This document shows, one piece after another, positions 1,132 to 64,000 of a stretch of 64,000 nt of DNA; position 1 is the first letter of the stretch, and every line of letters starts with the position of its first letter. The notes below the pieces were generated by a model. It was given only the letters and a program-made list of their open reading frames with translations, did not search any database and had not been told where the DNA came from. The stretch is from Escherichia coli (GTDB taxonomy: Bacteria > Pseudomonadota > Gammaproteobacteria > Enterobacterales > Enterobacteriaceae): assembly GCF_009931435.1 (NCBI RefSeq), contig NZ_CP043414.1. The stretch is one strand, 5' to 3'. Both the position numbers and the translations under genes were made by a program.

Positions 1132-1994
<863 letters not shown>

Positions 1995-2026
1995 TTAGCG
2001 GGGGAAGCAAAATGCCTCCCCCGGTT

Positions 2027-2044
2027 GTACTCGCTAAAGAGTAC
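2027..2044. promoter_or_regulatory. trpR operator (TrpR autoregulation site)
   Basis: GTACTCGCTAAAGAGTAC palindrome 48-65 bp upstream of the trpR start, resembling the trp operator half-sites GTACT/AGTAC. Confidence 0.5.
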
Positions 2045-2068
2045 GATAGCATATCATAAACGTGCGGA

Positions 2069-4006
2069 TCAGTAACGACGTCCCCATTCCGTGGCGCTCA
2101 TCAACGTTGGTTTATCCCCCATGAAATAGCGGTAGTAAGCGTCATAAGCCAGCACGTTCTTCACATAACCGCGCGTCTCAGAGAACGGAATACTCTCGAC
2201 AAATGCCACTGCGTCGATACGACCAGCGCTGTTGCCAAGCCAGGTGCGCACTCGTCCAGGTCCGGCGTTATAAGCTGCTGAGGCGAAAATACGGTTATTG
2301 CCAAACTGCTGATAAACATATTGCAGGTAACTGGTGCCGATGTTGATGTTCGTTTCCGGATCCAGCAATTGCCCAGGGCTGCTGTAGCCAGGAATAGAGA
2401 ACATCTTCACCGTATGGGTCGCCGTACCAGGCATAATCTGCATCAGCCCGCTGGCCCCTACCGGTGACTTCACTTTCGGATTCCAGGCGCTCTCCTGACG
2501 GGCAATCGCCATCGCATAGCTTTGCGGGATCTCCTTACCGCTGGTGTAACGTTTGAAAAAATCGTTGTAGGCCAGCGGGAATCGTTCTTCCAGATGATCC
2601 CACAACTTCCCGGCGATCGTCGCCTGAACGCTGAGATCCCACCATTGGTTGTTGAAAGCATACCGTGCCAGCTGTGCCTGCTCTGTTTTTGACTTGCTCT
2701 TCACCAGATTGGCCCACTCGCTACGCGCGGTGTTATCGAGATTCCAGTACATCAACTCGCGCACGCGCGCCATCTCCGGCCCCTGAGTCAGGGTGCTGTC
2801 AACATTCTGCGGCGCTTTATCAATCTTCAGCTCATACTCTTCGCCGATGCGCTGTGCAGCAACCATCGGGTAGAAACCACGCTGTTGCATGAGTTGATGC
2901 AGAATCTCTTTCGCTTCAGCTTCACGTCCGCGTTCCAGCAATAAATCGGCCTGCCAGTAACGCCATTCATCTTTCTCTTTCGCTTCCATCGGCAAACGCG
3001 CCAGCCAGGTATTCAGGCCACGCCGATCGCCAGTACCAAGCGCCATCCGCACTCGGCGTTCAATCAACGAGGTGGATTGCGAGCGCATAATGGCGTCATC
3101 GCGCCATTTCGCCTGCTCGTCGGTGACATCGTTGCCCATCAAACGCCAGGCGACGATATCGCGCAGTTCCTGAATCTGATCTTCATTAAGCTGCTGTGCC
3201 TGAGCAAGCGATGGAATCATCAGCCGTGCATTTTCAGCATCCTGCCGTGCCACGCTGGCAAACGCCACCGCCGCCATTTGACGGGTAAAATCGGTCGCAC
3301 CGGTTGTACGCGCGAAGGTCAGTACCGTATTAGGGTTGTTCGCCAGAGAAATAATCGCCGAGGCGATAGTCTGGTAATCAGCAGGCATCTGACCTGCCAG
3401 CACTGTCACCAGACCCGTGTTACCCGCTTTCATCGCCAGACGGATACGCTCTAAATACGCCAGCGGATCTTGTTTGCCTGACGCACGCCAGACACTAAAT
3501 AACTTGTCACAAGCGTTAGGCTGGCTCTTGCCGGTTAGCCACAACTCTTTCGCCCCTTGCCAGGCTTCTTCACTCTGCCCGGTGTTCCATTTCGCATAGT
3601 AGTAATTACATTGCGCTTCGGTAGTTCCGGGCTTTTCCGGGCTAAAGGCTAACAAGCCACGCCAGTCTTCACGCCGCGCCAGTTCATTGACGAAACGAGA
3701 TTGCAGCGTGCGAGCGGGAGGAAGCGTGGGGTTAGCGCGAACAAAGTTAGTGACCGTCACCGCCGGTTGATTCATCAGGTCATCGGTGATCTGACGGTAT
3801 TCCAGGTAGGGATAAAGCGGATAATCTTTCAGTCCAGGCATCATTTGTTCGACCACATCCATTTGTCGATTATCCCAGGCCTGCTTAATTTGCGCGTAAC
3901 GGCTACGCTGCTCATCCAGTGAGTCGGCTCGCGCCACGCTGCTGACCGTCAGCAGACAGACACCGACAGCCAACAGCCGCCAGGTAACGTGTTTGGCTTT
4001 TTCCAC
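2069..4006 (-). CDS. slt: Soluble lytic murein transglycosylase Slt70
   Basis: 645-aa ORF with an N-terminal signal peptide and a C-terminal lysozyme-like domain (...ESAWNPKVKSPVGASGLMQIMPGTA...). Confidence 0.95.
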   Translation of the reverse strand: MEKAKHVTWRLLAVGVCLLTVSSVARADSLDEQRSRYAQIKQAWDNRQMDVVEQMMPGLKDYPLYPYLEYRQITDDLMNQPAVTVTNFVRANPTLPPARTLQSRFVNELARREDWRGLLAFSPEKPGTTEAQCNYYYAKWNTGQSEEAWQGAKELWLTGKSQPNACDKLFSVWRASGKQDPLAYLERIRLAMKAGNTGLVTVLAGQMPADYQTIASAIISLANNPNTVLTFARTTGATDFTRQMAAVAFASVARQDAENARLMIPSLAQAQQLNEDQIQELRDIVAWRLMGNDVTDEQAKWRDDAIMRSQSTSLIERRVRMALGTGDRRGLNTWLARLPMEAKEKDEWRYWQADLLLERGREAEAKEILHQLMQQRGFYPMVAAQRIGEEYELKIDKAPQNVDSTLTQGPEMARVRELMYWNLDNTARSEWANLVKSKSKTEQAQLARYAFNNQWWDLSVQATIAGKLWDHLEERFPLAYNDFFKRYTSGKEIPQSYAMAIARQESAWNPKVKSPVGASGLMQIMPGTATHTVKMFSIPGYSSPGQLLDPETNINIGTSYLQYVYQQFGNNRIFASAAYNAGPGRVRTWLGNSAGRIDAVAFVESIPFSETRGYVKNVLAYDAYYRYFMGDKPTLMSATEWGRRY

Positions 4007-50642: not shown

Positions 50643-50846
50643 ATGTTTGGTAACTTAGGACAGGCAAAAAAATATCTCGGCCAGGCGGCGAAGATGTTGA
50701 TTGGCATTCCAGACTACGACAACTACGTCGAGCATATGAAGACCAACCATCCCGACAAGCCGTACATGAGCTATGAAGAATTCTTCCGCGAACGCCAGAA
50801 CGCGCGCTACGGCGGCGATGGTAAAGGCGGTATGCGCTGTTGTTAA
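50643..50846 (+). CDS. yjiX: YjiX (DUF466 family small protein)
   Basis: 67 aa [67 protein letters not shown]. Confidence 0.8.
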
Positions 50847-50856
50847 TGGAGAGAGC

Positions 50857-51813
50857 ATGAACCCGATTGCAGTTACCCTACTCACCGGTTTTTTAGGCGC
50901 AGGCAAAACCACCCTGCTGCGCCATATTCTTAATGAACAGCACGGCTACAAGATTGCCGTGATTGAAAACGAATTCGGCGAAGTCTCCGTTGATGATCAA
51001 CTGATTGGCGACCGCGCCACGCAGATCAAAACGCTGACCAACGGCTGCATCTGTTGTTCGCGCTCCAACGAGCTGGAGGACGCGCTACTCGACCTGCTGG
51101 ATAATCTCGACAAGGGCAATATTCAGTTCGATCGTCTGGTCATTGAATGCACCGGCATGGCCGATCCCGGCCCGATTATTCAGACCTTTTTCTCCCATGA
51201 GATTTTATGCCAGCGTTACCTGCTGGACGGCGTGATTGCGCTGGTGGATGCGGTACATGCCGATGAGCAGATGAACCAGTTCACCATCGCCCAGTCACAG
51301 GTTGGCTACGCCGACCGCATTCTGCTGACCAAAACCGACGTCGCAGGCGAAGCAGAAAAACTGCGTGAACGCCTGGCACGCATCAACGCCCGCGCACCGG
51401 TCTACACCGTCACCCACGGCGACATCGATCTGGGCCTGCTGTTCAACACCAACGGTTTTATGCTGGAAGAAAACGTCGTCAGCACCAAACCGCGTTTCCA
51501 CTTTATCGCGGATAAACAAAACGATATTTCGTCGATTGTGGTAGAACTGGATTACCCGGTAGATATCAGCGAAGTTTCCCGCGTGATGGAAAACCTGCTG
51601 CTGGAGTCGGCGGATAAACTGCTGCGTTACAAAGGGATGCTATGGATTGACGGCGAACCAAATCGCCTGCTGTTCCAGGGCGTCCAGCGCCTCTACAGCG
51701 CCGACTGGGACCGCCCGTGGGGCGATGAAAAACCGCATAGCACGATGGTGTTTATCGGGATTCAGCTGCCGGAGGAAGAGATTCGGGCTGCGTTTGCGGG
51801 GTTGAGGAAGTAA
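50857..51813 (+). CDS. yjiA: COG0523/CobW-family metal-binding GTPase YjiA
   Basis: Start placed at MNPIAVTLLTGFLGAGKTTLLRHIL... (318 aa); GCICCS metal-binding motif. Confidence 0.9.
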   Translation: MNPIAVTLLTGFLGAGKTTLLRHILNEQHGYKIAVIENEFGEVSVDDQLIGDRATQIKTLTNGCICCSRSNELEDALLDLLDNLDKGNIQFDRLVIECTGMADPGPIIQTFFSHEILCQRYLLDGVIALVDAVHADEQMNQFTIAQSQVGYADRILLTKTDVAGEAEKLRERLARINARAPVYTVTHGDIDLGLLFNTNGFMLEENVVSTKPRFHFIADKQNDISSIVVELDYPVDISEVSRVMENLLLESADKLLRYKGMLWIDGEPNRLLFQGVQRLYSADWDRPWGDEKPHSTMVFIGIQLPEEEIRAAFAGLRK

Positions 51814-51878: not shown

Positions 51879-52628
51879 TTATGAAACATCACGAAATACA
51901 CAGGTAAGTTCTTTAGGACTTGCTTTCCATATATGGTCAAAGCCACTCGACAGCATGACTTCTATTTTTCCTTCCGGACTTTCAATTAGTAAATAGCGAT
52001 CATGGCAGTTTGTATATTTGGGATTTGTAGTGATTTGCACACTCCATTCAGGATGGATACAATGAACAAAATTACTATTTATTTTACTTCCGTTTTGGAC
52101 TGCAGCGACACCTACTGCGATTTCTGAAAATTCAATAACAAGCTCTTTTCTAGGTAGTACGGAATGAAATAAGCTGCATGTATTCTCCCAATTCTGTGCA
52201 AAGTAATTATCGCATATAATTACTTTTTTTGCATTGCAACATAGCATTTCCAGATACTTTTTTAAATATATTCTATTATCTGTAGGGCTTAATGTAACGG
52301 TAACTTGATTATTAACCATACCTTTTTTATAATGTACAAAGGGAAGTGATAAATTATCATTCTCAGTAAGGATTATTTTCAACAACGATTTAGATGCTAA
52401 AGTAACAAGATCATCATCACTTTCAGGCTGACTTGCTAACATAGATAAATATTGTCGATATTCTAACTCCGGCATCTTCAATCCTAAATTTCTTGCCTCA
52501 ATCCATTGCCTTTTGTTAGTTAAATAAGGTAGTACTAGTTTTTTATGTAATCTCTTCACCTTATTCTTATCATCCATATTTTCATATGCAACTAATAAAG
52601 ATGTATCAAGAACCATTTGATAAGACAT
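51879..52628 (-). CDS. Hypothetical protein, no recognisable domain; third gene of the accessory operon (gene C)
   Basis: 249-aa ORF; ATG 4 nt after the ATPase stop with a GAGGT Shine-Dalgarno; AT-rich coding sequence. Confidence 0.6.
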   Translation of the reverse strand: MSYQMVLDTSLLVAYENMDDKNKVKRLHKKLVLPYLTNKRQWIEARNLGLKMPELEYRQYLSMLASQPESDDDLVTLASKSLLKIILTENDNLSLPFVHYKKGMVNNQVTVTLSPTDNRIYLKKYLEMLCCNAKKVIICDNYFAQNWENTCSLFHSVLPRKELVIEFSEIAVGVAAVQNGSKINSNFVHCIHPEWSVQITTNPKYTNCHDRYLLIESPEGKIEVMLSSGFDHIWKASPKELTCVFRDVS

Positions 52629-52632
52629 TTCT

Positions 52633-53682
52633 TTACCTCATCTTCATCAAATCATCTAAGGTTGCATCAAAAAAACCTAAAGGGAATCCCGTAACATTCT
52701 CTTGCAGATCGGTAAATTTCCCACCTTCATTAACTCTCATCGAGATAAAATCTTTATCCACATCAGGTTTATAATGTACAGAAATATCCTCAGAAGTTAT
52801 AACATCTTCATAAACCAAATACGCAAGTTTATTGATTAAATGTTCACAATGCGTTTCTACAATAATCTGGATACCCTTACTTGCTACAAATGCTAAAAAA
52901 ATTGCCAAATGAGACTGCGCTTTCGGATGCAATTGAATTTCGGGATTTTCTAGCAAAATAAGATCGCCTTTTTTTGCCATCAAACAAATAATCAAAACCT
53001 TTGCAATATAACTCATCCCAGCCCCAAGATTAAGAGGAGAAACATTTCCTTCAAGCTCTTTTAAGGTAAAAGCGACCTTAATCTGGTCACCAACTTTTTC
53101 AGTAACTAATTCAGACGTCGTTCCTGTAATCAGTTTCAACCAATAAGATAATTGATATGCAAGTGTTGTAGATTCGTGAACTTTCACCAGATATTCAGGT
53201 ACTGGCAAATGTTTCATTTTATCAAATGTTGAAAACAAGAATTCTCCTGCAACACCTACTCGACGTTCTGCGGTGGGCACAAATTCTTGTGCCCCCAAGC
53301 GGTTGGCATTCAGATAGAGCAACTCAGGTTCACTACCAGGCACTCTTGGCTCGTATTGATATCCCAGACGACTATCAATTTCGATATTTTCTGAGTTGAG
53401 CGTTAACGAATGAGAATTTTTTTCTGTATCCTGGACTGTTATAACAATAGATTTTGCGTTATTTTTTTTATTTCTAATAACAGGAAAATCAGCTAGAAAT
53501 CGGATAACTTCTTCCATACTATACTGATTAACAGAAGCGCTATTTTTAATTAGTAACATCAATGCCTGAATAACGCTGGATTTACCAGAAGAGTTAGTTC
53601 CAGTTAAAATGGTCAGTGGTGATAACACCAGACTTGTTGAGCCTAAACTTTTAAATCCTTGAATGTTAATATTTGTAAGCAT
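52633..53682 (-). CDS. ABC-type/AAA_21-like ATPase, second gene of the accessory operon (gene B)
   Basis: 349 aa; N-terminal MLTNINIQGFKSLGS... with Walker A GTNSSGKSS; C-terminal Walker B and H-loop (DLILLENPEIQLHP...IIVETHCEHL); start overlaps the upstream gene by 17 nt. Confidence 0.75.
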   Translation of the reverse strand: MLTNINIQGFKSLGSTSLVLSPLTILTGTNSSGKSSVIQALMLLIKNSASVNQYSMEEVIRFLADFPVIRNKKNNAKSIVITVQDTEKNSHSLTLNSENIEIDSRLGYQYEPRVPGSEPELLYLNANRLGAQEFVPTAERRVGVAGEFLFSTFDKMKHLPVPEYLVKVHESTTLAYQLSYWLKLITGTTSELVTEKVGDQIKVAFTLKELEGNVSPLNLGAGMSYIAKVLIICLMAKKGDLILLENPEIQLHPKAQSHLAIFLAFVASKGIQIIVETHCEHLINKLAYLVYEDVITSEDISVHYKPDVDKDFISMRVNEGGKFTDLQENVTGFPLGFFDATLDDLMKMR

Positions 53683-54796
53683 TTTTAATCCTTTCCATTA
53701 TTTCCTTCGCAAAATCAAAACGCATATTTACATATTGTGTTGTATCAATTGCACCAGAAAAAATACCAATCTCATCAAAATTATACTTGTATTGTTCAAT
53801 AAGCTGTTTTAATTCAATATTTTTTGATAAAAATTCAAAACTTATCTGACTGAATACCATAACTAACACTTCGAATAATCCCATATTCACTGGTCGCCTT
53901 TTAGCACCTGATTTTGTTGAAAATCTAAATGCTTCTGAACCCAACGCTTTATAGACATTAGTCATACCAGTTATACAAGCATCTTCAACTTCTTCCAGTA
54001 ACTCATCATCAGCTTTTGTATTAATGAATTTCATCGCAGATGCTAAAAAAGCATCAATATCAGACCTAAATTCAACACCTGGCATTTGATTTGTTACAAG
54101 CAAATAAAATCCTACGAACCGCAAAACCAGATATCTGTCTCGCATACGCTCAGATTTTACGCCATTACCTGTTGCAAGCCTGAAAGACTCGTGTTCAGCG
54201 AGATCCTTAATTAACTTTGTGGCCTTGCCTTGATAAAGAGCATGCCGCATTTCCTGTTTATTTAGATTAATACCACTTCGATTTACACGCTCAAAAATAT
54301 TAAATTTCACATATTCAGGTGTTGGGGGTTGAATCACATAAGAATGTAACTGGCAATCTTCAAGCTTTGCTTGTAATAATGGAGGAATATCAGAAAATTT
54401 TTTTCCTCTCAAGTCAGGCAACATAGATAAATCAGTTAAAGAAAATTCATTGTTAACATAGCGTTTCAATGCAGATATTCGTTGTTTGCCATCAATGATT
54501 TGCCTGACACCATTTTCATCCTCAAAAAGATAAATTAATGGAATAGGAATCCCCATTAAAATAGATTCAATTAATTCTGACTGGTGTTTTCTATCCCAGA
54601 CAAGTTTACGCTGAAAATCTGGAGCAAGAACCAGTTGCCCACGAGCTTCGCGACGGAGTAATTCGAAAACACTGGATTGCTCTTTTGCAATTCGAACCTC
54701 AGTATCTGTCCCCATTTGATGCGGATGAGATGTTAACTCAAGCTCTTCTTGATCTTCGAGTTCAATGCTGTCGTTTTCTACATCCGCATTACTCAT
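53666..54796 (-). CDS. DUF262 (ParB/sulfiredoxin-like NTPase, GmrS-type) domain protein, first gene of the accessory operon (gene A)
   Basis: 376 aa; acidic N-terminal tail then DUF262 motifs PDFQRKLVWDRKHQSELIESILMGIPIPLIYLF...IIDGKQRISAL and FNIFERVNRSGINLNKQEM; no DUF1524/HNH motif found. Confidence 0.75.
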   Translation of the reverse strand: MSNADVENDSIELEDQEELELTSHPHQMGTDTEVRIAKEQSSVFELLRREARGQLVLAPDFQRKLVWDRKHQSELIESILMGIPIPLIYLFEDENGVRQIIDGKQRISALKRYVNNEFSLTDLSMLPDLRGKKFSDIPPLLQAKLEDCQLHSYVIQPPTPEYVKFNIFERVNRSGINLNKQEMRHALYQGKATKLIKDLAEHESFRLATGNGVKSERMRDRYLVLRFVGFYLLVTNQMPGVEFRSDIDAFLASAMKFINTKADDELLEEVEDACITGMTNVYKALGSEAFRFSTKSGAKRRPVNMGLFEVLVMVFSQISFEFLSKNIELKQLIEQYKYNFDEIGIFSGAIDTTQYVNMRFDFAKEIMERIKNAYKY

Positions 54797-55036: not shown

Positions 55037-57469
55037 ATGGCGGAACTGAACCTAAGTAACCTGACGGAAGCAGACATCATTACCAAATGCGTTATGCCAG
55101 CCATTCTCAATGCAGGCTGGGACAACACAACGCAAATCAGACAGGAGGTCAAACTCCGGGACGGTAAAGTCATCGTACGTGGTAAAGTTGCGGCACGCAG
55201 AACGGTAAAATCTGCTGACATCGTGCTGTATCACAAACCAGGCATTCCCTTAGCCGTGATTGAAGCAAAAGCCAACAAACATGAAATTGGCAAAGGGATG
55301 CAACAGGGCATTGAATATGCGCGCCTGCTGGACGTTCCTTTTGTTTTTGCCACCAACGGGGATGGCTTTATCTTCCGCGATGCCACCGCAGCCGAAGGTG
55401 AATGCCTTGAAAAGCAAATAACGCTGGATGACTTCCCCTCCCCCGCTGAACTCTGGCAAAAATTCTGCCTCTGGAAAGGATACACACAAGCTCAGCTTCC
55501 GGTGATTACTCAGGACTATTACGACGATGGCAGCGGTAAATCGCCACGTTATTACCAGCTTCAGGCAATCAACAAAACCATTGAAGCCGTCTCCAACGGG
55601 CAAAACCGCGTTCTGTTGGTCATGGCGACCGGAACAGGGAAAACCTATACCGCATTCCAGATCATCTGGCGCCTGTGGAAATCAAAAAATAAAAAACGCA
55701 TTCTGTTCCTTGCCGATCGCAACATTCTGGTCGACCAAACCAAAAATAATGATTTCCAGCCATTTGGTACGGCAATGACCAAAGTCAGCGGACGCACCAT
55801 TGATCCCGCTTATGAAATTCACCTCGCGCTCTATCAGGCTATAACTGGCCCGGAGGAAGACCAAAAAGCGTTTAAACAAGTCGCACCAGATTTCTTCGAT
55901 CTGATAGTCATCGACGAATGCCATCGCGGCAGCGCATCCGAAGACAGCGCCTGGCGAGAGATCCTTGATTATTTCAGTTCCGCCACCCAAATTGGCTTAA
56001 CCGCCACGCCAAAAGAGACGCATGAAGTCTCCAGCACGGATTACTTCGGCGATCCGGTTTACGTCTACTCGCTAAAAGAAGGGATCGAAGACGGCTTCCT
56101 CGCCCCTTATAAAGTTGTCCGTGTTGATATTGATGTTGATCTGCAAGGCTGGCGCCCAACCAAAGGGCAAACTGACTTAAACGGCGAAGTGATCGACGAT
56201 CGTATCTATAACCAGAAAGATTTCGATCGCACGATGGTAATCGACGAACGCACAGAACTGGTTGCCAGAACCATTACCGACTACCTCAAGCGCACCAATC
56301 CGATGGATAAAACCATCGTCTTCTGTAACGACATCGATCATGCAGAACGTATGCGCCGCGCCCTGGTTAATCTCAACTCGGAGCAGGTGAAAAAGAACGA
56401 CAAATACGTCATGAAAATCACCGGCGATGATGAAATTGGCAAAGCTCAGTTGGATAACTTCATCAACCCGAAAAAACCGTACCCGGTTATCGCGACCACT
56501 TCAGAGCTGATGACCACCGGTGTGGATGCTAAAACCTGCAAACTGGTAGTACTGGACCAGAACATCCAGTCGATGACCAAATTCAAGCAGATTATCGGTC
56601 GTGGTACACGCATCGACGAACGTTACGGCAAACTCTGGTTTACCATCCTCGACTTTAAAAAAGCCACCGAACTGTTTGCCGATGAGCGTTTCGATGGCAT
56701 TCCCGAAAAAGTCATGGATACCACACCAGAGGATATCACCGATCCAGAATCTGATTTTGAAGAGAAACTCGAAGAAATCAGCGAACATGACGACGAACAG
56801 GTAACGGGCGTTGATGAACCGCCTGCGCCACCATACCAGGTTACCGATACCGATGATGTCGGCCCACTTCCGGAAGAAGACGAGAAGAAAATCCGCAAGT
56901 TTCACGTCAACGGTGTCGCGGTGGGCGTTATTGCGCAGCGTGTTCAGTATTACGATGCCGACGGTAAACTGGTTACCGAATCTTTTAAAGATTACACCCG
57001 CAAAACACTGCTCAAAGAATATGCCTCGCTGGATGACTTTACCCGCAAGTGGCAGGACGCCGATCGCAAAGAAGCGATCATTCACGAGCTGGAGCAACAG
57101 GGGATCATCTGGGAAGTACTGGCAGAAGAAGTCGGTAAAGATCTCGACCCGTTCGACATGCTTTGCCACGTAGTGTATGGTCAGCCGCCGTTAACCCGCA
57201 AAGAGCGCGCCGAGAACGTGCGCAAGCGGAACTACTTCACAAAATACTCTGAAGCAGCGCAAGCCGTGCTCGATAATCTGCTGGATAAATACGCCGATGC
57301 GGGCGTACAGGAGATCGAAAGTATTCAGGTGCTGAAACTTAAACCATTCGACAGCATGGGCACTTTACCGGAGATTATTAAAACCGGATTTGGCGACCGT
57401 AACGGGTATAATCAGGCGCTCAGCGAGCTGGAAAACGAAATCTACCAATTACCGCCCCGCTCTGCTTAA
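55037..57469 (+). CDS. hsdR: Type I restriction enzyme R subunit HsdR (short, Type IB-like form)
   Basis: 810 aa; N-terminal PD-(D/E)xK nuclease region and SF2 helicase motifs [26 protein letters not shown]. Confidence 0.9.
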
Positions 57470-57483
57470 CAACTCTCTTTTGC

Positions 57484-57522
57484 GCCTTCTGCAACCATCA
57501 TGTTGCAGAAGGCCTTGTTTTT
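57484..57522 (+). terminator. Rho-independent terminator between hsdR and hsdM
   Basis: Perfect 12-bp stem GCCTTCTGCAAC / GTTGCAGAAGGC with a 6-nt loop, followed by CTTGTTTTTC. Confidence 0.55.
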
Positions 57523-57535
57523 CATGGAATACAAC

Positions 57536-59005
57536 ATGTCTATCAGCTCAGTAATCAAATCATTACAAGATATTATGCGCAAAGATGCCGGTGTGGATGG
57601 CGATGCGCAGCGTCTCGGTCAGCTCTCCTGGCTGCTGTTTTTGAAAATCTTCGATGCCCAGGAAGAGGCGCTGGAACTGGAGCAGGATAACTATCAATAT
57701 CCGATCCCACAGCGTTATTTGTGGCGCAGTTGGGCCGCCAACGCGCAGGGCATTACCGGTGATTCCCTGCTGGAATTCGTTAATGATGATCTGTTCCCGG
57801 CGTTGAAAAACCTCACTGCGCCTATCGATAAAAACCCACGCGGCTACGTGGTGAAGCAGGCGTTCAGCGATGCCTATAACTATATGAAAAACGGTACGCT
57901 ACTGCGTCAGGTGATCAACAAGCTGAACGAAATTGACTTTACCAGCGCCAGCGAACGCCATCTGTTTGGTGATATTTACGAACAGATCCTTAAAGATCTG
58001 CAATCTGCGGGCAATGCTGGCGAATTCTATACTCCACGCGCCGTCACTCGCTTTATGGTGGATCGCGTTGATCCGAAACTCGGCGAATCCATTATGGACC
58101 CGGCCTGCGGTACGGGCGGTTTTCTTGCCTGCGCATTTGATCATGTAAAGAACAAATACGTGAAGAGCGTCGCCGATCATCAGACTCTGCAACAACAGAT
58201 CCACGGTGTCGAGAAAAAACAGCTTCCGCACCTGCTGGCGACCACCAATATGCTGCTGCACGGCATTGAAGTACCGGTACAAATTCGTCACGACAACACC
58301 CTGAATAAACCGCTTTCCTCCTGGGATGAGCAACTGGATGTGATTGTTACCAACCCGCCATTTGGTGGCACGGAAGAAGACGGTATTGAGAAGAACTTTC
58401 CGGCAGAGATGCAAACCCGCGAAACGGCGGATCTGTTCCTGCAACTGATTGTGGAAGTACTGGCGAAAAACGGTCGCGCGGCGGTGGTATTGCCGGATGG
58501 CACACTATTTGGCGAAGGCGTTAAAACCAAAATCAAAAAACTGCTTACCGAAGAGTGCAACCTGCATACCATCGTGCGTTTACCGAATGGGGTGTTTAAC
58601 CCCTATACCGGCATTAAAACCAACCTGTTGTTCTTTACCAAAGGTCAGCCAACCAAAGAGATTTGGTTCTATGAGCATCCGTATCCGGCGGGCGTGAAAA
58701 ATTACAGTAAAACCAAGCCGATGAAGTTTGAAGAGTTTCAGGCGGAGATCGACTGGTGGGGGAACGAGGCCGATGGTTTTGCCAGCCGCGTCGAGAATGA
58801 GCAGGCGTGGAAAGTCAGCATTGATGACGTGATTGCGCGTAACTTCAATCTGGATATTAAAAACCCACATCAGGCGGAAACCGTTAGCCATGATCCGGAC
58901 GAGCTGTTAGCGCAGTATGCAAAGCAGCAGGCGGAGATCCAGACGCTGCGTAATCAACTGCGCGATATTCTTGGCGCTGCGCTGTCTGGCAAGGAGGTTA
59001 ACTGA
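57536..59005 (+). CDS. hsdM: Type I restriction-modification N6-adenine DNA methyltransferase HsdM
   Basis: SAM motif DPACGTGGFL and catalytic NPPFGG; start placed at MSISSVIKSLQDI... after the hairpin (the track ORF starts at 57500, inside the hairpin). Confidence 0.9.
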   Translation: MSISSVIKSLQDIMRKDAGVDGDAQRLGQLSWLLFLKIFDAQEEALELEQDNYQYPIPQRYLWRSWAANAQGITGDSLLEFVNDDLFPALKNLTAPIDKNPRGYVVKQAFSDAYNYMKNGTLLRQVINKLNEIDFTSASERHLFGDIYEQILKDLQSAGNAGEFYTPRAVTRFMVDRVDPKLGESIMDPACGTGGFLACAFDHVKNKYVKSVADHQTLQQQIHGVEKKQLPHLLATTNMLLHGIEVPVQIRHDNTLNKPLSSWDEQLDVIVTNPPFGGTEEDGIEKNFPAEMQTRETADLFLQLIVEVLAKNGRAAVVLPDGTLFGEGVKTKIKKLLTEECNLHTIVRLPNGVFNPYTGIKTNLLFFTKGQPTKEIWFYEHPYPAGVKNYSKTKPMKFEEFQAEIDWWGNEADGFASRVENEQAWKVSIDDVIARNFNLDIKNPHQAETVSHDPDELLAQYAKQQAEIQTLRNQLRDILGAALSGKEVN

Positions 59006-60753
59006 TGAGTGTGGAAAAGCTGATCGTTGATCATATGGAAACCTGGACCTCGGCGTTGCAAACCCGTTCCACCGCCGGGCGCGGCAGTTCCGGAAAAATT
59101 GATTTATATGGCATTAAGAAATTACGTGAGCTGATTCTGGAACTGGCTGTGCGCGGTAAACTGGTGCCGCAGGATCCGAATGATGAACCGGCGTCGGAGC
59201 TGCTGAAGCGTAATGAAGAACGGAAAAAAGAATTAGCGCGCAATAATGGTATGAAAACCACAGCAAGCACTAATATCCATGGAAATGAATATTATATCGA
59301 TACCCCCGAAAAGTGGTCATGGATAAGACTTGGTAATTTAGCTAAATTCATCGATTACCGAGGGAAAACACCACATAAAAAAGAAAATGGTATAAGGCTT
59401 ATAACAGCAAAAAATATCAGAAAGGGCTGTATTGATCTCAATCCAGAAGAATTCATATCTGAAGAAGATTACATATCATGGATGACAAGAGGCTTTCCTA
59501 AATGTGGTGATATTTTATTCACAACTGAAGCACCACTGGGGAATGCAGCGATTATTGATTTAGACGGAAAGTTCGCTCTTGCTCAACGTTCTATCTGTTT
59601 TCAATGGCATACTCCAGAGATAAGCCCTTTTATGCTTATTCAAATCCTGGCGATCCCCTTCCAGTCACAACTAAGTGACAAATCTACAGGCATGACCGCA
59701 ACAGGAATAAAAGCGTCTAAGTTAAAAGAGATCCCTGTTATTTTACCACCTTACCAAGAACAAATACGTATTGTATCCAAAGTACAGGAGTTCATGTCCC
59801 TATGTGACCAACTGGAACAGCAATCCCTGACCACTCTGGACGCACATCAGCAACTGGTTGAAACCCTGTTGGGAACGCTTACAGACAGCCAAAACGCCGA
59901 GGAACTGGCTGAAAACTGGGCGCGTATTAGCGAGCATTTCGACACCCTATTTACCACCGAAGCCAGCGTGGATGCGTTAAAACAGACCATTCTGCAACTG
60001 GCCGTAATGGGCAAACTTGTGCCGCATGATCCGAATGACGAACCAGCCTCTGAACTGCTCAAACGAATTGCGCAGGAAAAAGCTCAACTGGTGAAAGAAG
60101 GAAAAATAAAAAAACAAAAACCGTTGCCGCCGATTAGCGATGAGGAAAAACCTTTTGAACTGCCGGAAGGGTGGGAATGGATTAGACTAGGAAATATTGG
60201 TGAAGTTAAAGGGGGCGGAACCCCAAGTAAAAACAATCCTGATTTTTGGAAAGGTAATATTCCATGGGTTTCACCAAAGGATATGAAGGTTAATTACATC
60301 TCCAAAAGTCAACTAAATATTTCAAAAGAGGCTGTATTGGAGAGTTCAGTACATCTAATTCCTGAAAATAGTCTTATTTTTGTTGTCCGAGGCATGATTT
60401 TAGCCCATACATTCCCCGTAGCAATAACAAAAAAAGAAGTCACTATTAATCAAGATATGAAAGCCATATCAACTAATCAATTAAATACTGATTTTTTAAT
60501 TTACTTACTTAAAGCAAACGAGACTCGAGTAATATGCTTAGTTGACCGCTCCTCTCATGGCACATGTAAACTTGTTTCAGATAAACTTTTCAATTTGGTT
60601 TTACCGTTGCCTCCATTAGAAGAACAATTTCGTATTACAGAACGAATAAATATGCTATTAGCTTATTGTGATAGATTGAAAAATTATATAAATCTAAAAA
60701 AACAAACCCAACTGCACCTTGCAGATGCACTCACTGACGCGGCGATAAACTAA
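59005..60753 (+). CDS. hsdS: Type I restriction-modification specificity subunit HsdS
   Basis: 582 aa; ATG overlaps the hsdM stop (TGATG); two target-recognition domains, each preceded by a conserved repeat (LAVRGKLVPQDPNDEPASELLKR / LAVMGKLVPHDPNDEPASELLKR). Confidence 0.9.
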   Translation: MSVEKLIVDHMETWTSALQTRSTAGRGSSGKIDLYGIKKLRELILELAVRGKLVPQDPNDEPASELLKRNEERKKELARNNGMKTTASTNIHGNEYYIDTPEKWSWIRLGNLAKFIDYRGKTPHKKENGIRLITAKNIRKGCIDLNPEEFISEEDYISWMTRGFPKCGDILFTTEAPLGNAAIIDLDGKFALAQRSICFQWHTPEISPFMLIQILAIPFQSQLSDKSTGMTATGIKASKLKEIPVILPPYQEQIRIVSKVQEFMSLCDQLEQQSLTTLDAHQQLVETLLGTLTDSQNAEELAENWARISEHFDTLFTTEASVDALKQTILQLAVMGKLVPHDPNDEPASELLKRIAQEKAQLVKEGKIKKQKPLPPISDEEKPFELPEGWEWIRLGNIGEVKGGGTPSKNNPDFWKGNIPWVSPKDMKVNYISKSQLNISKEAVLESSVHLIPENSLIFVVRGMILAHTFPVAITKKEVTINQDMKAISTNQLNTDFLIYLLKANETRVICLVDRSSHGTCKLVSDKLFNLVLPLPPLEEQFRITERINMLLAYCDRLKNYINLKKQTQLHLADALTDAAIN

Positions 60754-60896: not shown

Positions 60897-60914
60897 GTAT
60901 TTAGCGCGGTGCGA

Positions 60915-61000
60915 ATGTGCGCCAACACACCCGCACCGCTCATCACAATCCCTATTTCACGAGAATAGTAATCATGACTGACACGCATTCTATTGCACAA
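60915..61000 (-). ncRNA. symR: Expected position of the SymR antisense sRNA (boundaries not determinable from sequence)
   Basis: Placed only by analogy: in K-12 SymR is encoded antisense to the symE 5' UTR and start codon; no independent sequence evidence. Confidence 0.25.
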
Positions 61001-61315
61001 CCGTTCGAAGCAGAAGTCTCCCCGGCAAATAACCGTCAATTAACCGTGAGTTATGCGAGCCGCTACCCGGATTACAGCCGTATTCCCGCCATCACTCTGA
61101 AAGGTCAGTGGCTGGAAACCGCCGGTTTTACCACCGGCACGGCGGTAGATGTCAAAGTGATGGAAGGCTGTATTGTCCTCACCGCCCAACCACCCGCCGC
61201 CGAGGAGAGCGAACTGATGCAGTCACTGCGCCAGGTGTGCAAACTGTCAGCGCGTAAACAGAAGCAGGTGCAGGAGTTTATTGGGGTGATTGCCGGTAAA
61301 CAGAAAGTCGCCTGA
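60974..61315 (+). CDS. symE: SOS-induced toxin-like protein SymE (AbrB/SpoVT fold)
   Basis: 113 aa [48 protein letters not shown]...; track ORF starts at an upstream Met (60917). Confidence 0.85.
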
Positions 61316-61361: not shown

Positions 61362-63110
61362 TTATACCAACGCGCTCTCCATCTGTTTTTCAAATGCCTG
61401 ACGGATTAATCCCATAATGTAAGGAAGTTGTGCGAGGTCGCTGAAACCAATTTCTACATCGCCATTGCCCCAGCGCCCAACATTTGTCACATCTTTGGCA
61501 ATACCTTTCGGATCGACCAGTTCATGAAACTGCATATTAAGCGACAATCGCAGTCGGCTTTTTTGCGGCACAACATCAACAAAATTCGTTTCCGCTTTAA
61601 ACGCAATATAGAGCTTCAATACTTCCTGCGTGATCCCTGCGTCCAGGCGCAAAACTTCATCGCTAAGATGATCGAATAACACCCGGCTATGCGAACCATC
61701 AGCAAGAAAAGGATAATCACTCAGGCTGTAACTGGTTTTGTTTTCCGGCTGCCCCCGATAAACAGCTAAAACCTCTTCAGGAAGAGAAGGCGCTTGCCAG
61801 ACCTGAACCGCGAGATCGGCCAGACGATCGGCTCGGGCGTGAATGGCAGCTTCATCCCATTTTTCGCACTGTCCAAGACCGATATTCAAATAAAGCGGGC
61901 TATGCTTAAAGCCGTCTTCAATATCGCGTTTTTCCGCGAAAGGTCTGTCACTGTAGCGGGAGTTATAGCGCGTTAAAGTGAGATTCCCCAACGTATGCAA
62001 CAATTCTTTATGAATACGCTGCCAGTCGCTTCCCAGCTCTTCGCGCCATTTAGCCGACAAATTTTCGTTCTGCGGCATAATGTGCTCAATCGTAAACTCT
62101 TCCACGCGCTCTCTGCGTTTATTGTTTTCCAGTCGTCGTAACCAGTAACTGCGACTGCGGAAGTTATAGAGATCGCGAACTTTTAATTCCCGTTTAAATT
62201 CATCATCGTTGGGGAAACGACGATATGAAGGTAGATTCAGAAAATGTACCTGAATACTTTCCAGATAATTTTCTTTATTAATAACTTTATAAAAAGTGGC
62301 AAACGTCTTGTTAAGAGAATTTGTTGGAATCGCACATACTGCACGGCGGAAAACATAAGATTCAATTAAACGAATTATGCTCAGGAAATCTTCACGAGAC
62401 AAAACGCCATTTTTATAGTCATGATAAAGCGCCAGTAAGAAAGGATACGCCACATCGACTTTTAACTCGCGCAAATCCTGAAAAGCCGTAGCAAGCGATT
62501 TGTCACTTTCTTTTCCCAATGCCATTGCACAGTAATACTCCGCGTAGATGTGAATATCTTCAACCAGCCGATCTACGCCTTTTTCAGCAACACTCTGGCT
62601 ACGGGCATGGAGTTTAAAAGCCTCATAGACTTCATCTGTCCGAGGGATCTCCCCCGTTTTTACCGTCAGATAATGACGCATAAAACTGTCAAAATATTCG
62701 CTGTAACCTTGCTGACCAAAGGCGACTTCCATGGGTCGCCAGTGATCTTCATACAACCGGGTTTGATGCTCTGGTTCGAGACCCATCAGAATAAAATTGC
62801 GCACCAGATCGGCCTGACTTAACGCCTTACCGGTGGAGTTCATACTTTCAAAAATCAGTTGCGGATTATCCTGACCACGATTAAGCGCCACATCGACAAT
62901 TAATAACTTTGCTAACCCACGACATAAGGGGATCAAGTCATCACCGAGTTTGGCAATTTGTTCATCAAAGAAAGTAAAGTTTTCCATTATTCGATGGGAA
63001 TAGTTTTCTGGCATTGGTCTTTGTTTTATTAACGCCAGCAAACTGTCTTTATCAGTCTCGGTAAGCAGTAATTTAAATCCTTTCTCGCCGGACTCATAAG
63101 GATTGAGCAA
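61362..63110 (-). CDS. GmrSD-family (DUF262 C-terminal part + DUF1524 His-Me finger) protein lacking the N-terminal DGQQR core; possibly the yjiT-equivalent locus
   Basis: 582-aa ORF with a TTG start right after an in-frame stop; DUF262 distal motif IFESMNSTGKALSQADLVRNFILMG; DUF1524 motif EHIMPQNENLSAKW...LHTLGNLTLTRYNSRYSD; only 64 bp separate it from yjiS. Confidence 0.7.
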   Translation of the reverse strand: MLNPYESGEKGFKLLLTETDKDSLLALIKQRPMPENYSHRIMENFTFFDEQIAKLGDDLIPLCRGLAKLLIVDVALNRGQDNPQLIFESMNSTGKALSQADLVRNFILMGLEPEHQTRLYEDHWRPMEVAFGQQGYSEYFDSFMRHYLTVKTGEIPRTDEVYEAFKLHARSQSVAEKGVDRLVEDIHIYAEYYCAMALGKESDKSLATAFQDLRELKVDVAYPFLLALYHDYKNGVLSREDFLSIIRLIESYVFRRAVCAIPTNSLNKTFATFYKVINKENYLESIQVHFLNLPSYRRFPNDDEFKRELKVRDLYNFRSRSYWLRRLENNKRRERVEEFTIEHIMPQNENLSAKWREELGSDWQRIHKELLHTLGNLTLTRYNSRYSDRPFAEKRDIEDGFKHSPLYLNIGLGQCEKWDEAAIHARADRLADLAVQVWQAPSLPEEVLAVYRGQPENKTSYSLSDYPFLADGSHSRVLFDHLSDEVLRLDAGITQEVLKLYIAFKAETNFVDVVPQKSRLRLSLNMQFHELVDPKGIAKDVTNVGRWGNGDVEIGFSDLAQLPYIMGLIRQAFEKQMESALV

Positions 63111-63173
63111 ATAATAACCACTTCCTTGTGAAGGTTATAGAGAAATCCGGTTTATCTGCGATGAATTGCCCCC

Positions 63174-63338
63174 TCACTCCACATCCTCCCTGCGTAACCC
63201 AATATCCCTCAACCGTTCATCACTCATCTGCTGTAACACGCGTCGGGTCTGCATTTGCCGCCGCCAACGCCTCACCGCCTGCCAGAGTTGCACCAGGCCG
63301 ATAAACGGCGCTTTAGCTCTGTTTTCGTGAAATTCCAT
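63174..63338 (-). CDS. yjiS: DUF1127 small protein YjiS
   Basis: 54-aa ORF MEFHENRAKAPFIGLVQLWQAVRRWRRQMQTRRVLQQMSDERLRDIGLRREDVE; below the 60-aa cut-off of the ORF track. Confidence 0.75.
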   Translation of the reverse strand: MEFHENRAKAPFIGLVQLWQAVRRWRRQMQTRRVLQQMSDERLRDIGLRREDVE

Positions 63339-63514
63339 CTGCTGCCTCCTCATCTTTCAGAGGCTTCATCATCCGTCTTCTGGCAGTTCATAATACAGAT
63401 GCAAATATTACTTTTATTTAACATACAGACAGGTTAAAACAACATCTGCATCCGGTTTTTTAGCCTCATCTGTACCGGTTTTTCTCTCTGTATGGTCCAC
63501 ATAAGGAATACAGC

Positions 63515-64000
63515 ATGACGCGTTATCAACATCTGGCGACTCTACTTGCCGAGCGGATTGAGCAAGGGCTGTATCGTCACGGGGAGAAATTGCCGTCGGT
63601 GCGCAGCTTAAGTCGGGAGCACGGCGTCAGCATCAGCACCGTGCAGCAGGCATATCAGACGCTGGAGACAATGAAGCTCATCACTCCGCAGCCGCGTTCG
63701 GGTTATTTTGTCGCACAACGTAAAGCCCAGCCGCCAGTACCGCCGATGACGCGTCCGGTGCAGCGCCCGGTGGAAATTACCCAGTGGGATCAGGTGCTGG
63801 ATATGCTGGAGGCGCATAGCGACAGTTCCATTGTTCCGTTAAGCAAAAGCACGCCGGATGTCGAAACGCCCAGCTTGAAACCGCTGTGGCGGGAGCTAAG
63901 CCGGGTGGTGCAGCATAATCTGCAAACCGTTCTCGGTTATGACTTGTTAGCCGGTCAGCGAGTATTGCGAGAGCAGATTGCCCGCCTGATGCTCGACAGC
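63515..64000 (+). CDS. yjiR: MocR/GntR-family regulator YjiR (HTH + aminotransferase-like domain), N-terminal part; 3' end outside window
   Basis: ATG 63515 gives MTRYQHLATLLAERIEQGLYRHGEKLPSVRSLSREHGVSISTVQQAYQTLE... (GntR HTH) and stays open to the window end; divergent from yjiS. Confidence 0.75.
   Translation, partial: MTRYQHLATLLAERIEQGLYRHGEKLPSVRSLSREHGVSISTVQQAYQTLETMKLITPQPRSGYFVAQRKAQPPVPPMTRPVQRPVEITQWDQVLDMLEAHSDSSIVPLSKSTPDVETPSLKPLWRELSRVVQHNLQTVLGYDLLAGQRVLREQIARLMLDS

Follow-up and report, generated by a model that had tools for sequence, protein, structure and literature searches.

The DUF1127 family has a single member in Escherichia coli, YjiS (PMC12501420), and its gene is already known: it is annotated in RefSeq, has been studied experimentally and is the subject of two recent functional papers. 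A yjiS mutant of E. coli over-expresses pstS and takes up phosphate faster, and binding of the protein to the sensor kinase PhoR was shown by two-hybrid and Far-Western assays (PMC12501420). Expression of the 54-aa YjiS of Salmonella under SPI-2-inducing conditions was seen in northern blots, Ribo-seq and western blots; the protein is associated with the inner membrane, probably via an N-terminal amphipathic helix, and delays macrophage escape. The inner-membrane proteins that co-purify with it include the SsrA/B two-component system, and single substitutions of Arg or in DIGL were without phenotype (PMC11707872). More distant relatives are the alphaproteobacterial proteins SDP1-3 of Agrobacterium and CcaF1 of Rhodobacter, which share the Pfam domain of YjiS but differ from it in occurring as several paralogues with about 24% identity to YjiS (PMC12501420). 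A triple DUF1127 mutant of Agrobacterium is complemented by E. coli YjiS, which restores pstS repression, and the proteins of both organisms bind PhoR (PMC12501420). On the chromosome, yjiS and yjiA have been described as the boundaries of the variable immigration control region (ICR) (PMC3874153).

We analyzed a 64,000-nucleotide stretch of the E. coli contig NZ_CP043414.1 (RefSeq assembly GCF_009931435.1), referred to below as the window. It resembles the locus of E. coli K-12 YjiS (b4341) in position, in the 54-aa length of the protein, in its strand relation to yjiR and in the candidate promoter and TACAGA boxes described below. The window protein carries R44 where the K-12-type protein, as in the K-12-like strain ME8067, has K44, this being the sole residue difference. 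The two loci differ downstream of yjiS, where K-12 has the yjiT/yjiV pseudogenes and mcrBC, and the window a truncated GmrSD-like ORF, symE and a type I restriction-modification (R-M) system. The Salmonella Typhimurium protein, as described in PMC11707872, belongs to the same enterobacterial YjiS group; it too is a DUF1127 protein of 54 aa, amphipathic in its N-terminal segment, Arg-rich in the centre and equipped with DIGL. It differs in its SPI-2 co-expression, SsrA/B interaction and delay of macrophage escape, which need a system that E. coli lacks. The explanation that we consider best, and very probable as a whole, is that the window carries a genuine yjiS of the DUF1127 family, forming a module with yjiR at the edge of the ICR and presumably acting by damping PhoR, and that its adjacency to the GmrSD-like ORF is accidental.

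Reading frame, family and conservation of yjiS

The first-pass annotation had proposed a small DUF1127 gene, yjiS, that was missing from the list of ORFs supplied with the sequence. The translation it quoted was found exactly, on the minus strand, which it had left unstated; the plus-strand translation of the same positions contains many stop codons. The gene and its ribosome-binding site are as follows:

63174–63338, minus strand: yjiS coding sequence, 54 codons plus TGA (165 nt), supported by the sequence, the ORF, Pfam PF06568, the RefSeq name and purifying selection
63345–63351, minus strand: Shine-Dalgarno sequence GAGGAGG, 6 nt before the yjiS ATG (63338), supported by the sequence and by alignments

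The omission from the list was also confirmed, and it is explained by the cut-off used: the mechanical ORF caller begins yjiS at an in-frame ATG at 63353, and even the resulting 59-aa form lies under the limit of 60 aa. This longer form was rejected and the 54-aa start taken as correct, since the ATG at 63353 sits within the Shine-Dalgarno sequence of yjiS, has an in-frame TAG after it in Klebsiella and the K-12-like strain, and does not occur in Citrobacter. In the alignments, the GGAGG core of the Shine-Dalgarno sequence is invariant across Escherichia, Citrobacter and Klebsiella.

The assignment to DUF1127, which would have fallen had no homology been found, was borne out by Pfam and by RefSeq, where the ORF is named "yjiS: DUF1127 domain-containing protein". 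YjiS matched PF06568 with 50.2 bits (gathering cutoff 23.3; E=2.1e-13), its residues 18–54 covering the whole profile (positions 1–37 of 37). Small size, high arginine content and a DIGL-type motif are features of DUF1127 proteins (PMC11707872, PMC12501420), and YjiS shows all of them, with 11 arginines among 54 residues (20%) and DIGL at residues 45–48. A search of NCBIfam gave no match for YjiS and none for the GmrSD-like ORF downstream. Sequence comparison of YjiS with the PDB returned insignificant matches only (E >= 0.43), in agreement with the published statement that no structure of a DUF1127 protein exists (PMC12501420).

A 410-bp query around yjiS matched 3739 of 5426 complete E. coli genomes; about 31% of them thus gave no match to the region. 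All eight E. coli lineages compared keep the 54-codon frame unbroken, with residues 30–54 nearly invariant, third-codon positions variable in 13 of the 54 codons and pairwise pN/pS of 0.07–0.5. Homologues from other genera were obtained by protein search and contig look-ups, a contig scan with the back-translated motif DERLxDIGLRRE having been so stringent that its matches were confined to Escherichia or contaminant contigs. Those of Citrobacter and Klebsiella are equal in length and 66–74% identical, and between genera pS reaches 0.58–0.96, at which synonymous sites are saturated, against pN of 0.15–0.23. These comparisons of sequence indicate purifying selection on yjiS both within E. coli and across genera. 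The 54-aa pattern MEFHEN...QTRR.LQQMSDE.L.D.GLRR is kept in E. coli, Citrobacter and Klebsiella, so that the protein has the length and termini of an enterobacterial YjiS orthologue group, and it also has the synteny of that group, with a divergent yjiR and a position at the ICR boundary.

Among the E. coli lineages pS of yjiS is high, up to 0.26. The best identity of the yjiS region to any complete E. coli genome is 97.9%, and that of the neighbouring 12 kb is 98.9%; both values, together with the high pS, fit the known hypervariability of sequences flanking the ICR, or else a poorly sampled lineage. In E. coli strain PAR, yjiS is truncated at its 5' end (3512–3604 of the locus record) and yjiR is wholly lost, which shows that some strains can do without the pair.

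ORFs of 30–60 codons are numerous near yjiS and common throughout the window, so the length of the ORF is not significant by itself. This is the point in favour of regarding 63174–63338 as a chance ORF or non-coding spacer without a gene. The probability of that reading is practically nil: it is effectively refuted by the Pfam match, the intact frame and the purifying selection, and it has to contend further with an N-terminus (MEFHEN) that is kept across genera at saturated synonymous sites, a strong conserved Shine-Dalgarno sequence, and Ribo-seq and western evidence for the Salmonella orthologue (PMC11707872). We conclude that yjiS is a genuine protein-coding gene.

The divergent gene yjiR and the shared spacer

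On the other side of yjiS the window contains the beginning of yjiR, and the spacer between the two genes carries several short elements:

63515–64000, plus strand: 5' part of yjiR (GntR domain, 59.1 bits; annotated yjiR, 470 aa), running off the window end
63394–63399, plus strand: TACAGA box, first of the array 63394–63492
63424–63429, plus strand: TACAGA box
63469–63474, minus strand: TACAGA box
63487–63492, minus strand: TACAGA box
63437–63432 (-35) and 63416–63411 (-10), minus strand: candidate yjiS sigma-70 promoter TTAACC-15-TAAAAG, a proposal from K-12 genomic SELEX

YjiR is a PLP-dependent regulator of the MocR family with a GntR-type winged HTH. The divergent arrangement of yjiS and yjiR claimed by the first-pass annotation proved right: yjiR starts at 63515, leaving a spacer of 176 bp, and the same orientation and spacer length occur in every E. 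coli lineage examined. In Citrobacter and Klebsiella a 470-aa GntR+Aminotran_1_2 gene lies divergently, 177 bp from yjiS. Judged from this synteny, yjiS and yjiR appear to be a conserved two-gene module in which yjiR, and not the downstream gene, is the partner of yjiS.

In the spacer, 17 of the 176 columns are variable among the eight E. coli lineages, as compared with 13 of the 54 third-codon positions of yjiS, and all four TACAGA boxes are invariant. They also stand at identical positions in Citrobacter and Klebsiella, where the flanking spacer has diverged. The 64-kb window contains 17 TACAGA sites, four of which fall within these 99 bp (Poisson P ~2e-8), and near-copies of the box occur at 63443–63451 and 63507–63513. 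The boxes (TACAGA/TCTGTA) are repeated, two direct and two inverted, and have a TGT core, as would be expected of operator boxes in a YjiR regulon. In this the spacer is like those of the MocR pairs GabR-gabT and PdxR-pdxST, in which a regulator with a GntR-HTH and an aminotransferase fold is divergent from its target and the spacer between them holds short boxes, direct as well as inverted, that contain a TGT core; the difference is that the predicted target of YjiR is a 54-aa regulatory protein and not a metabolic enzyme.

The candidate yjiS promoter was proposed for K-12 from genomic SELEX and is not a mapped start (PMC3946193). The window spacer carries this sequence unchanged, and the elements AAAAG and GTTTTA are invariant across genera; a simple consensus promoter scan of the window did not call it. 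Its -10 is bracketed by two TACAGA boxes. A comparative-genomics regulog, "YjiR - Enterobacteriales", has COG5457, a YjiS-type protein, as its sole target (PMC5320631), and the divergent yjiR and invariant boxes agree with this published prediction that YjiR regulates yjiS. On these grounds the TACAGA array is a probable operator of the MocR-type regulator YjiR. Our literature search found no experimental paper on YjiR binding and none that pairs MocR with DUF1127 by name; in EHEC, yjiR has been reported to be induced in vivo and to be part of the accessory genome (PMC6550539).

The downstream ORF and the immigration control region

The end of the window is an ICR of the E. coli type, with the order yjiA, NsnABC-like genes, hsdRMS, SymR/symE, a GmrSD-family remnant, yjiS and yjiR:

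50773–51813: yjiA
51879–54796, minus strand: NsnABC-like system of three co-directional genes (PADLOC NsnC 238, NsnB 263 and NsnA 368 bits)
55037–60753, plus strand: type I R-M genes hsdRMS (hsdR 810 aa with an EcoEI_R_C domain, hsdM 501 aa, hsdS 582 aa)
60903–60979, minus strand: SymR antitoxin RNA (Rfam 88.9 bits, gathering score 61), antisense to the symE 5' end
60917–61315, plus strand: symE, a mechanical ORF of 132 aa from GTG
61362–63110, minus strand: GmrSD-family remnant, residues 116–697 of a 697-aa DUF262-DUF1524-DUF5655 type IV restriction-like gene
63110–63117, no strand: deletion junction, the surviving copy of an 8-bp microhomology (plus strand AATAATAA, gene strand TTATTATT)
63111–63173, minus strand: gap between yjiS and the remnant, 63 nt from the yjiS stop to the first possible start (TTG)

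By its PADLOC matches, 51879–54796 is a candidate NsnABC defence system adjoining yjiA within the ICR. The type I R-M operon is of an EcoEI-like rather than an EcoKI-like family, and the mechanical symE is longer than that of RefSeq (about 113 aa). Rfam at a permissive threshold gave nothing credible in the yjiS region, SymR being the only match.

Comparison with E. coli ATCC 8739 and 2017-02-2CC, which carry the intact gene, showed that the 378 bp between two copies of TTATTATT are missing from the window. The deletion took 32 nt of leader, the native ATG and residues 1–115, including the motifs IPIYQR and DGQQRLTT; it was seen in none of the best 30 of the 861 genomes carrying the region. 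The window ORF is thus best read, on the alignment with these two strains, as a strain-specific deletion remnant. It no longer has the N-terminal part of a GmrSD protein: GmrSD_N scored 32.2 bits, below the cutoff of 33.2, over profile positions 102–198 only (121 bits in the intact homologue), and DGQQR, the nucleotide-hydrolysis motif of the family (PMC8565348), is deleted, being kept in the intact homologue. At its C-terminus the window ORF retains the DUF1524 His-Me nuclease domain (GmrSD_C 92.4 bits, profile positions 2–137 of 138), and PADLOC Orf5 is covered from 104 to 542 by the remnant and from 1 to 542 by the intact homologue. The only possible start of the remnant is the TTG, with a poorly spaced AAGGAAG 10 nt upstream. 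Compared with the type IV enzymes GmrSD, BrxU and Eco94GmrSD, the intact homologue has a full DUF262-DUF1524 arrangement (best PADLOC matches Orf5, HEC-06 and mREase_IV) and the window copy keeps the C-terminal nuclease domain; the latter differs in the loss of residues 1–115, with DGQQR and its own start codon, and in an extra C-terminal DUF5655. It would be wrong to list the remnant among active defence genes.

RefSeq splits the gene of 2017-02-2CC and ATCC 8739 (1563–3656, minus strand) into a 'DUF262 ... pseudogene, missing C-terminus' and a 387-aa 'GmrSD domain' CDS. In both strains all 697 codons can be read without interruption, a real frameshift occurring only in O157:H7, where the gene was independently inactivated by 1 nt. 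From the open frame, the RefSeq split looks like an annotation artefact.

The first-pass annotation had also described yjiS as directly upstream of, and co-directional with, this GmrSD-like ORF (63110–61362), and had suggested that the two may be co-transcribed. The co-directional arrangement stands, and so does the short gap: scans of its 63 nt revealed no intrinsic terminator, no stable hairpin and no promoter-like site, and its fold is no more stable than that of shuffled sequence (z = 0.69). In strains with the intact gene, the spacer is 96 nt and likewise gave neither a consensus promoter nor a terminator in the scan. What found no support is the idea of a functional unit, since the neighbour of yjiS varies and the remnant has lost its beginning.

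In a functional operon YjiS would be an accessory protein or regulator of the restriction-like enzyme. The features of the two spacers and the presence of the arrangement in about 860 E. coli genomes speak for this reading, and the neighbourhood of yjiS speaks against it. In most E. coli lineages homology to the window breaks off 0–11 bp after the stop codon of yjiS, and most genomes bearing yjiS have another gene, or a convergent symE, downstream. As downstream neighbour, the K-12-like strain has a yjiT pseudogene, ST131 and strain A4 have a convergent symE, and strain 042 has a pseudogene of penicillin acylase; O157 and ATCC 8739 have a DUF262/GmrSD gene, and in Citrobacter and Klebsiella a MarR-efflux cluster takes this place. 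With at least five downstream contexts, the adjacency of yjiS and the GmrSD-like gene is not a conserved one. Moreover, K-12 genomic SELEX lists yjiS as its own unit and gives yjiT a separate promoter (PMC3946193), YjiS matches no PADLOC defence model, and the published functions of YjiS are unrelated to restriction. The neighbour was also inactivated independently in O157:H7 and in the window, and yjiS is intact in both. Because the neighbour varies, SELEX separates the units and YjiS matches no PADLOC model, a functional operon is unlikely, and we give it very little credence. That yjiS lies beside the GmrSD-like ORF is accidental, specific to the lineage and owed to the variability of the island.

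Passive read-through of the yjiS mRNA into the truncated ORF, in which the two would not be functionally coupled and the remnant would be translated scarcely or not at all, is a different matter. Terminator scans 3' of yjiS found none in the window or in the K-12-like, ATCC 8739, Citrobacter and Klebsiella loci, the one match in Citrobacter lying on the opposite strand within the spacer; a simple scan of this kind may miss weak terminators, and Rho-dependent termination cannot be judged from sequence. Incidental read-through is possible, as no lineage shows a recognisable yjiS terminator, and the unremarkable fold of the gap and the poor TTG start of the remnant are in keeping with it; given what such scans may miss, we consider it plausible without holding it to be probable. 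A stronger version is that the 378-bp deletion made a neo-operon, in which yjiS transcripts, meeting no terminator, would extend into the remnant and weak initiation at the TTG (63110) would give a DUF262-less His-Me nuclease/DUF5655 protein. To this we attach scarcely any probability; if it were true, expression of the remnant would be tied to the yjiS signal, presumably controlled by YjiR, and not to its native control.

Proposed action of YjiS and its meaning

By analogy with the literature on its orthologues, YjiS may be described as a membrane-associated, Arg-rich modulator of histidine-kinase signalling. The window protein has an amphipathic segment at about residues 8–31 (muH up to 0.55 for residues 14–31), through which it would be attached to the inner membrane. 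Its Arg-rich helices would then damp signalling by a histidine kinase, PhoR in E. coli. Transcription of yjiS, in turn, would be set by binding of YjiR to the TACAGA boxes, which overlap the core promoter of yjiS.

This mechanism may be incomplete, because the related DUF1127 protein CcaF1 binds RNA. CcaF1 has been described as an RNA-binding protein that affects sRNA maturation (PMC8034643), and the domain it has in common with YjiS and the very high arginine content of the latter (11 of 54 residues) would suit a protein that acts mainly on RNA rather than on sensor kinases. CcaF1 differs, however, in being co-transcribed with sRNAs, a linkage absent at the window yjiS, where no sRNA cluster or Rfam family adjoins the gene. 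For Salmonella YjiS there is no evidence of RNA interaction, its partners being inner-membrane proteins (PMC12501420), and E. coli YjiS binds PhoR in the two assays mentioned above. A mainly RNA-binding YjiS is therefore rather unlikely in our estimate, and modulation of a sensor kinase remains the preferred account.

The case of yjiS exemplifies how an ORF cut-off of 60 aa can hide a real, conserved regulatory protein. For the regulator next to it, YjiR, which is still uncharacterised, the four TACAGA boxes shared across genera provide a concrete and testable operator. If this operator is true, an unknown small-molecule signal would be linked to PhoR and phosphate signalling through YjiS.
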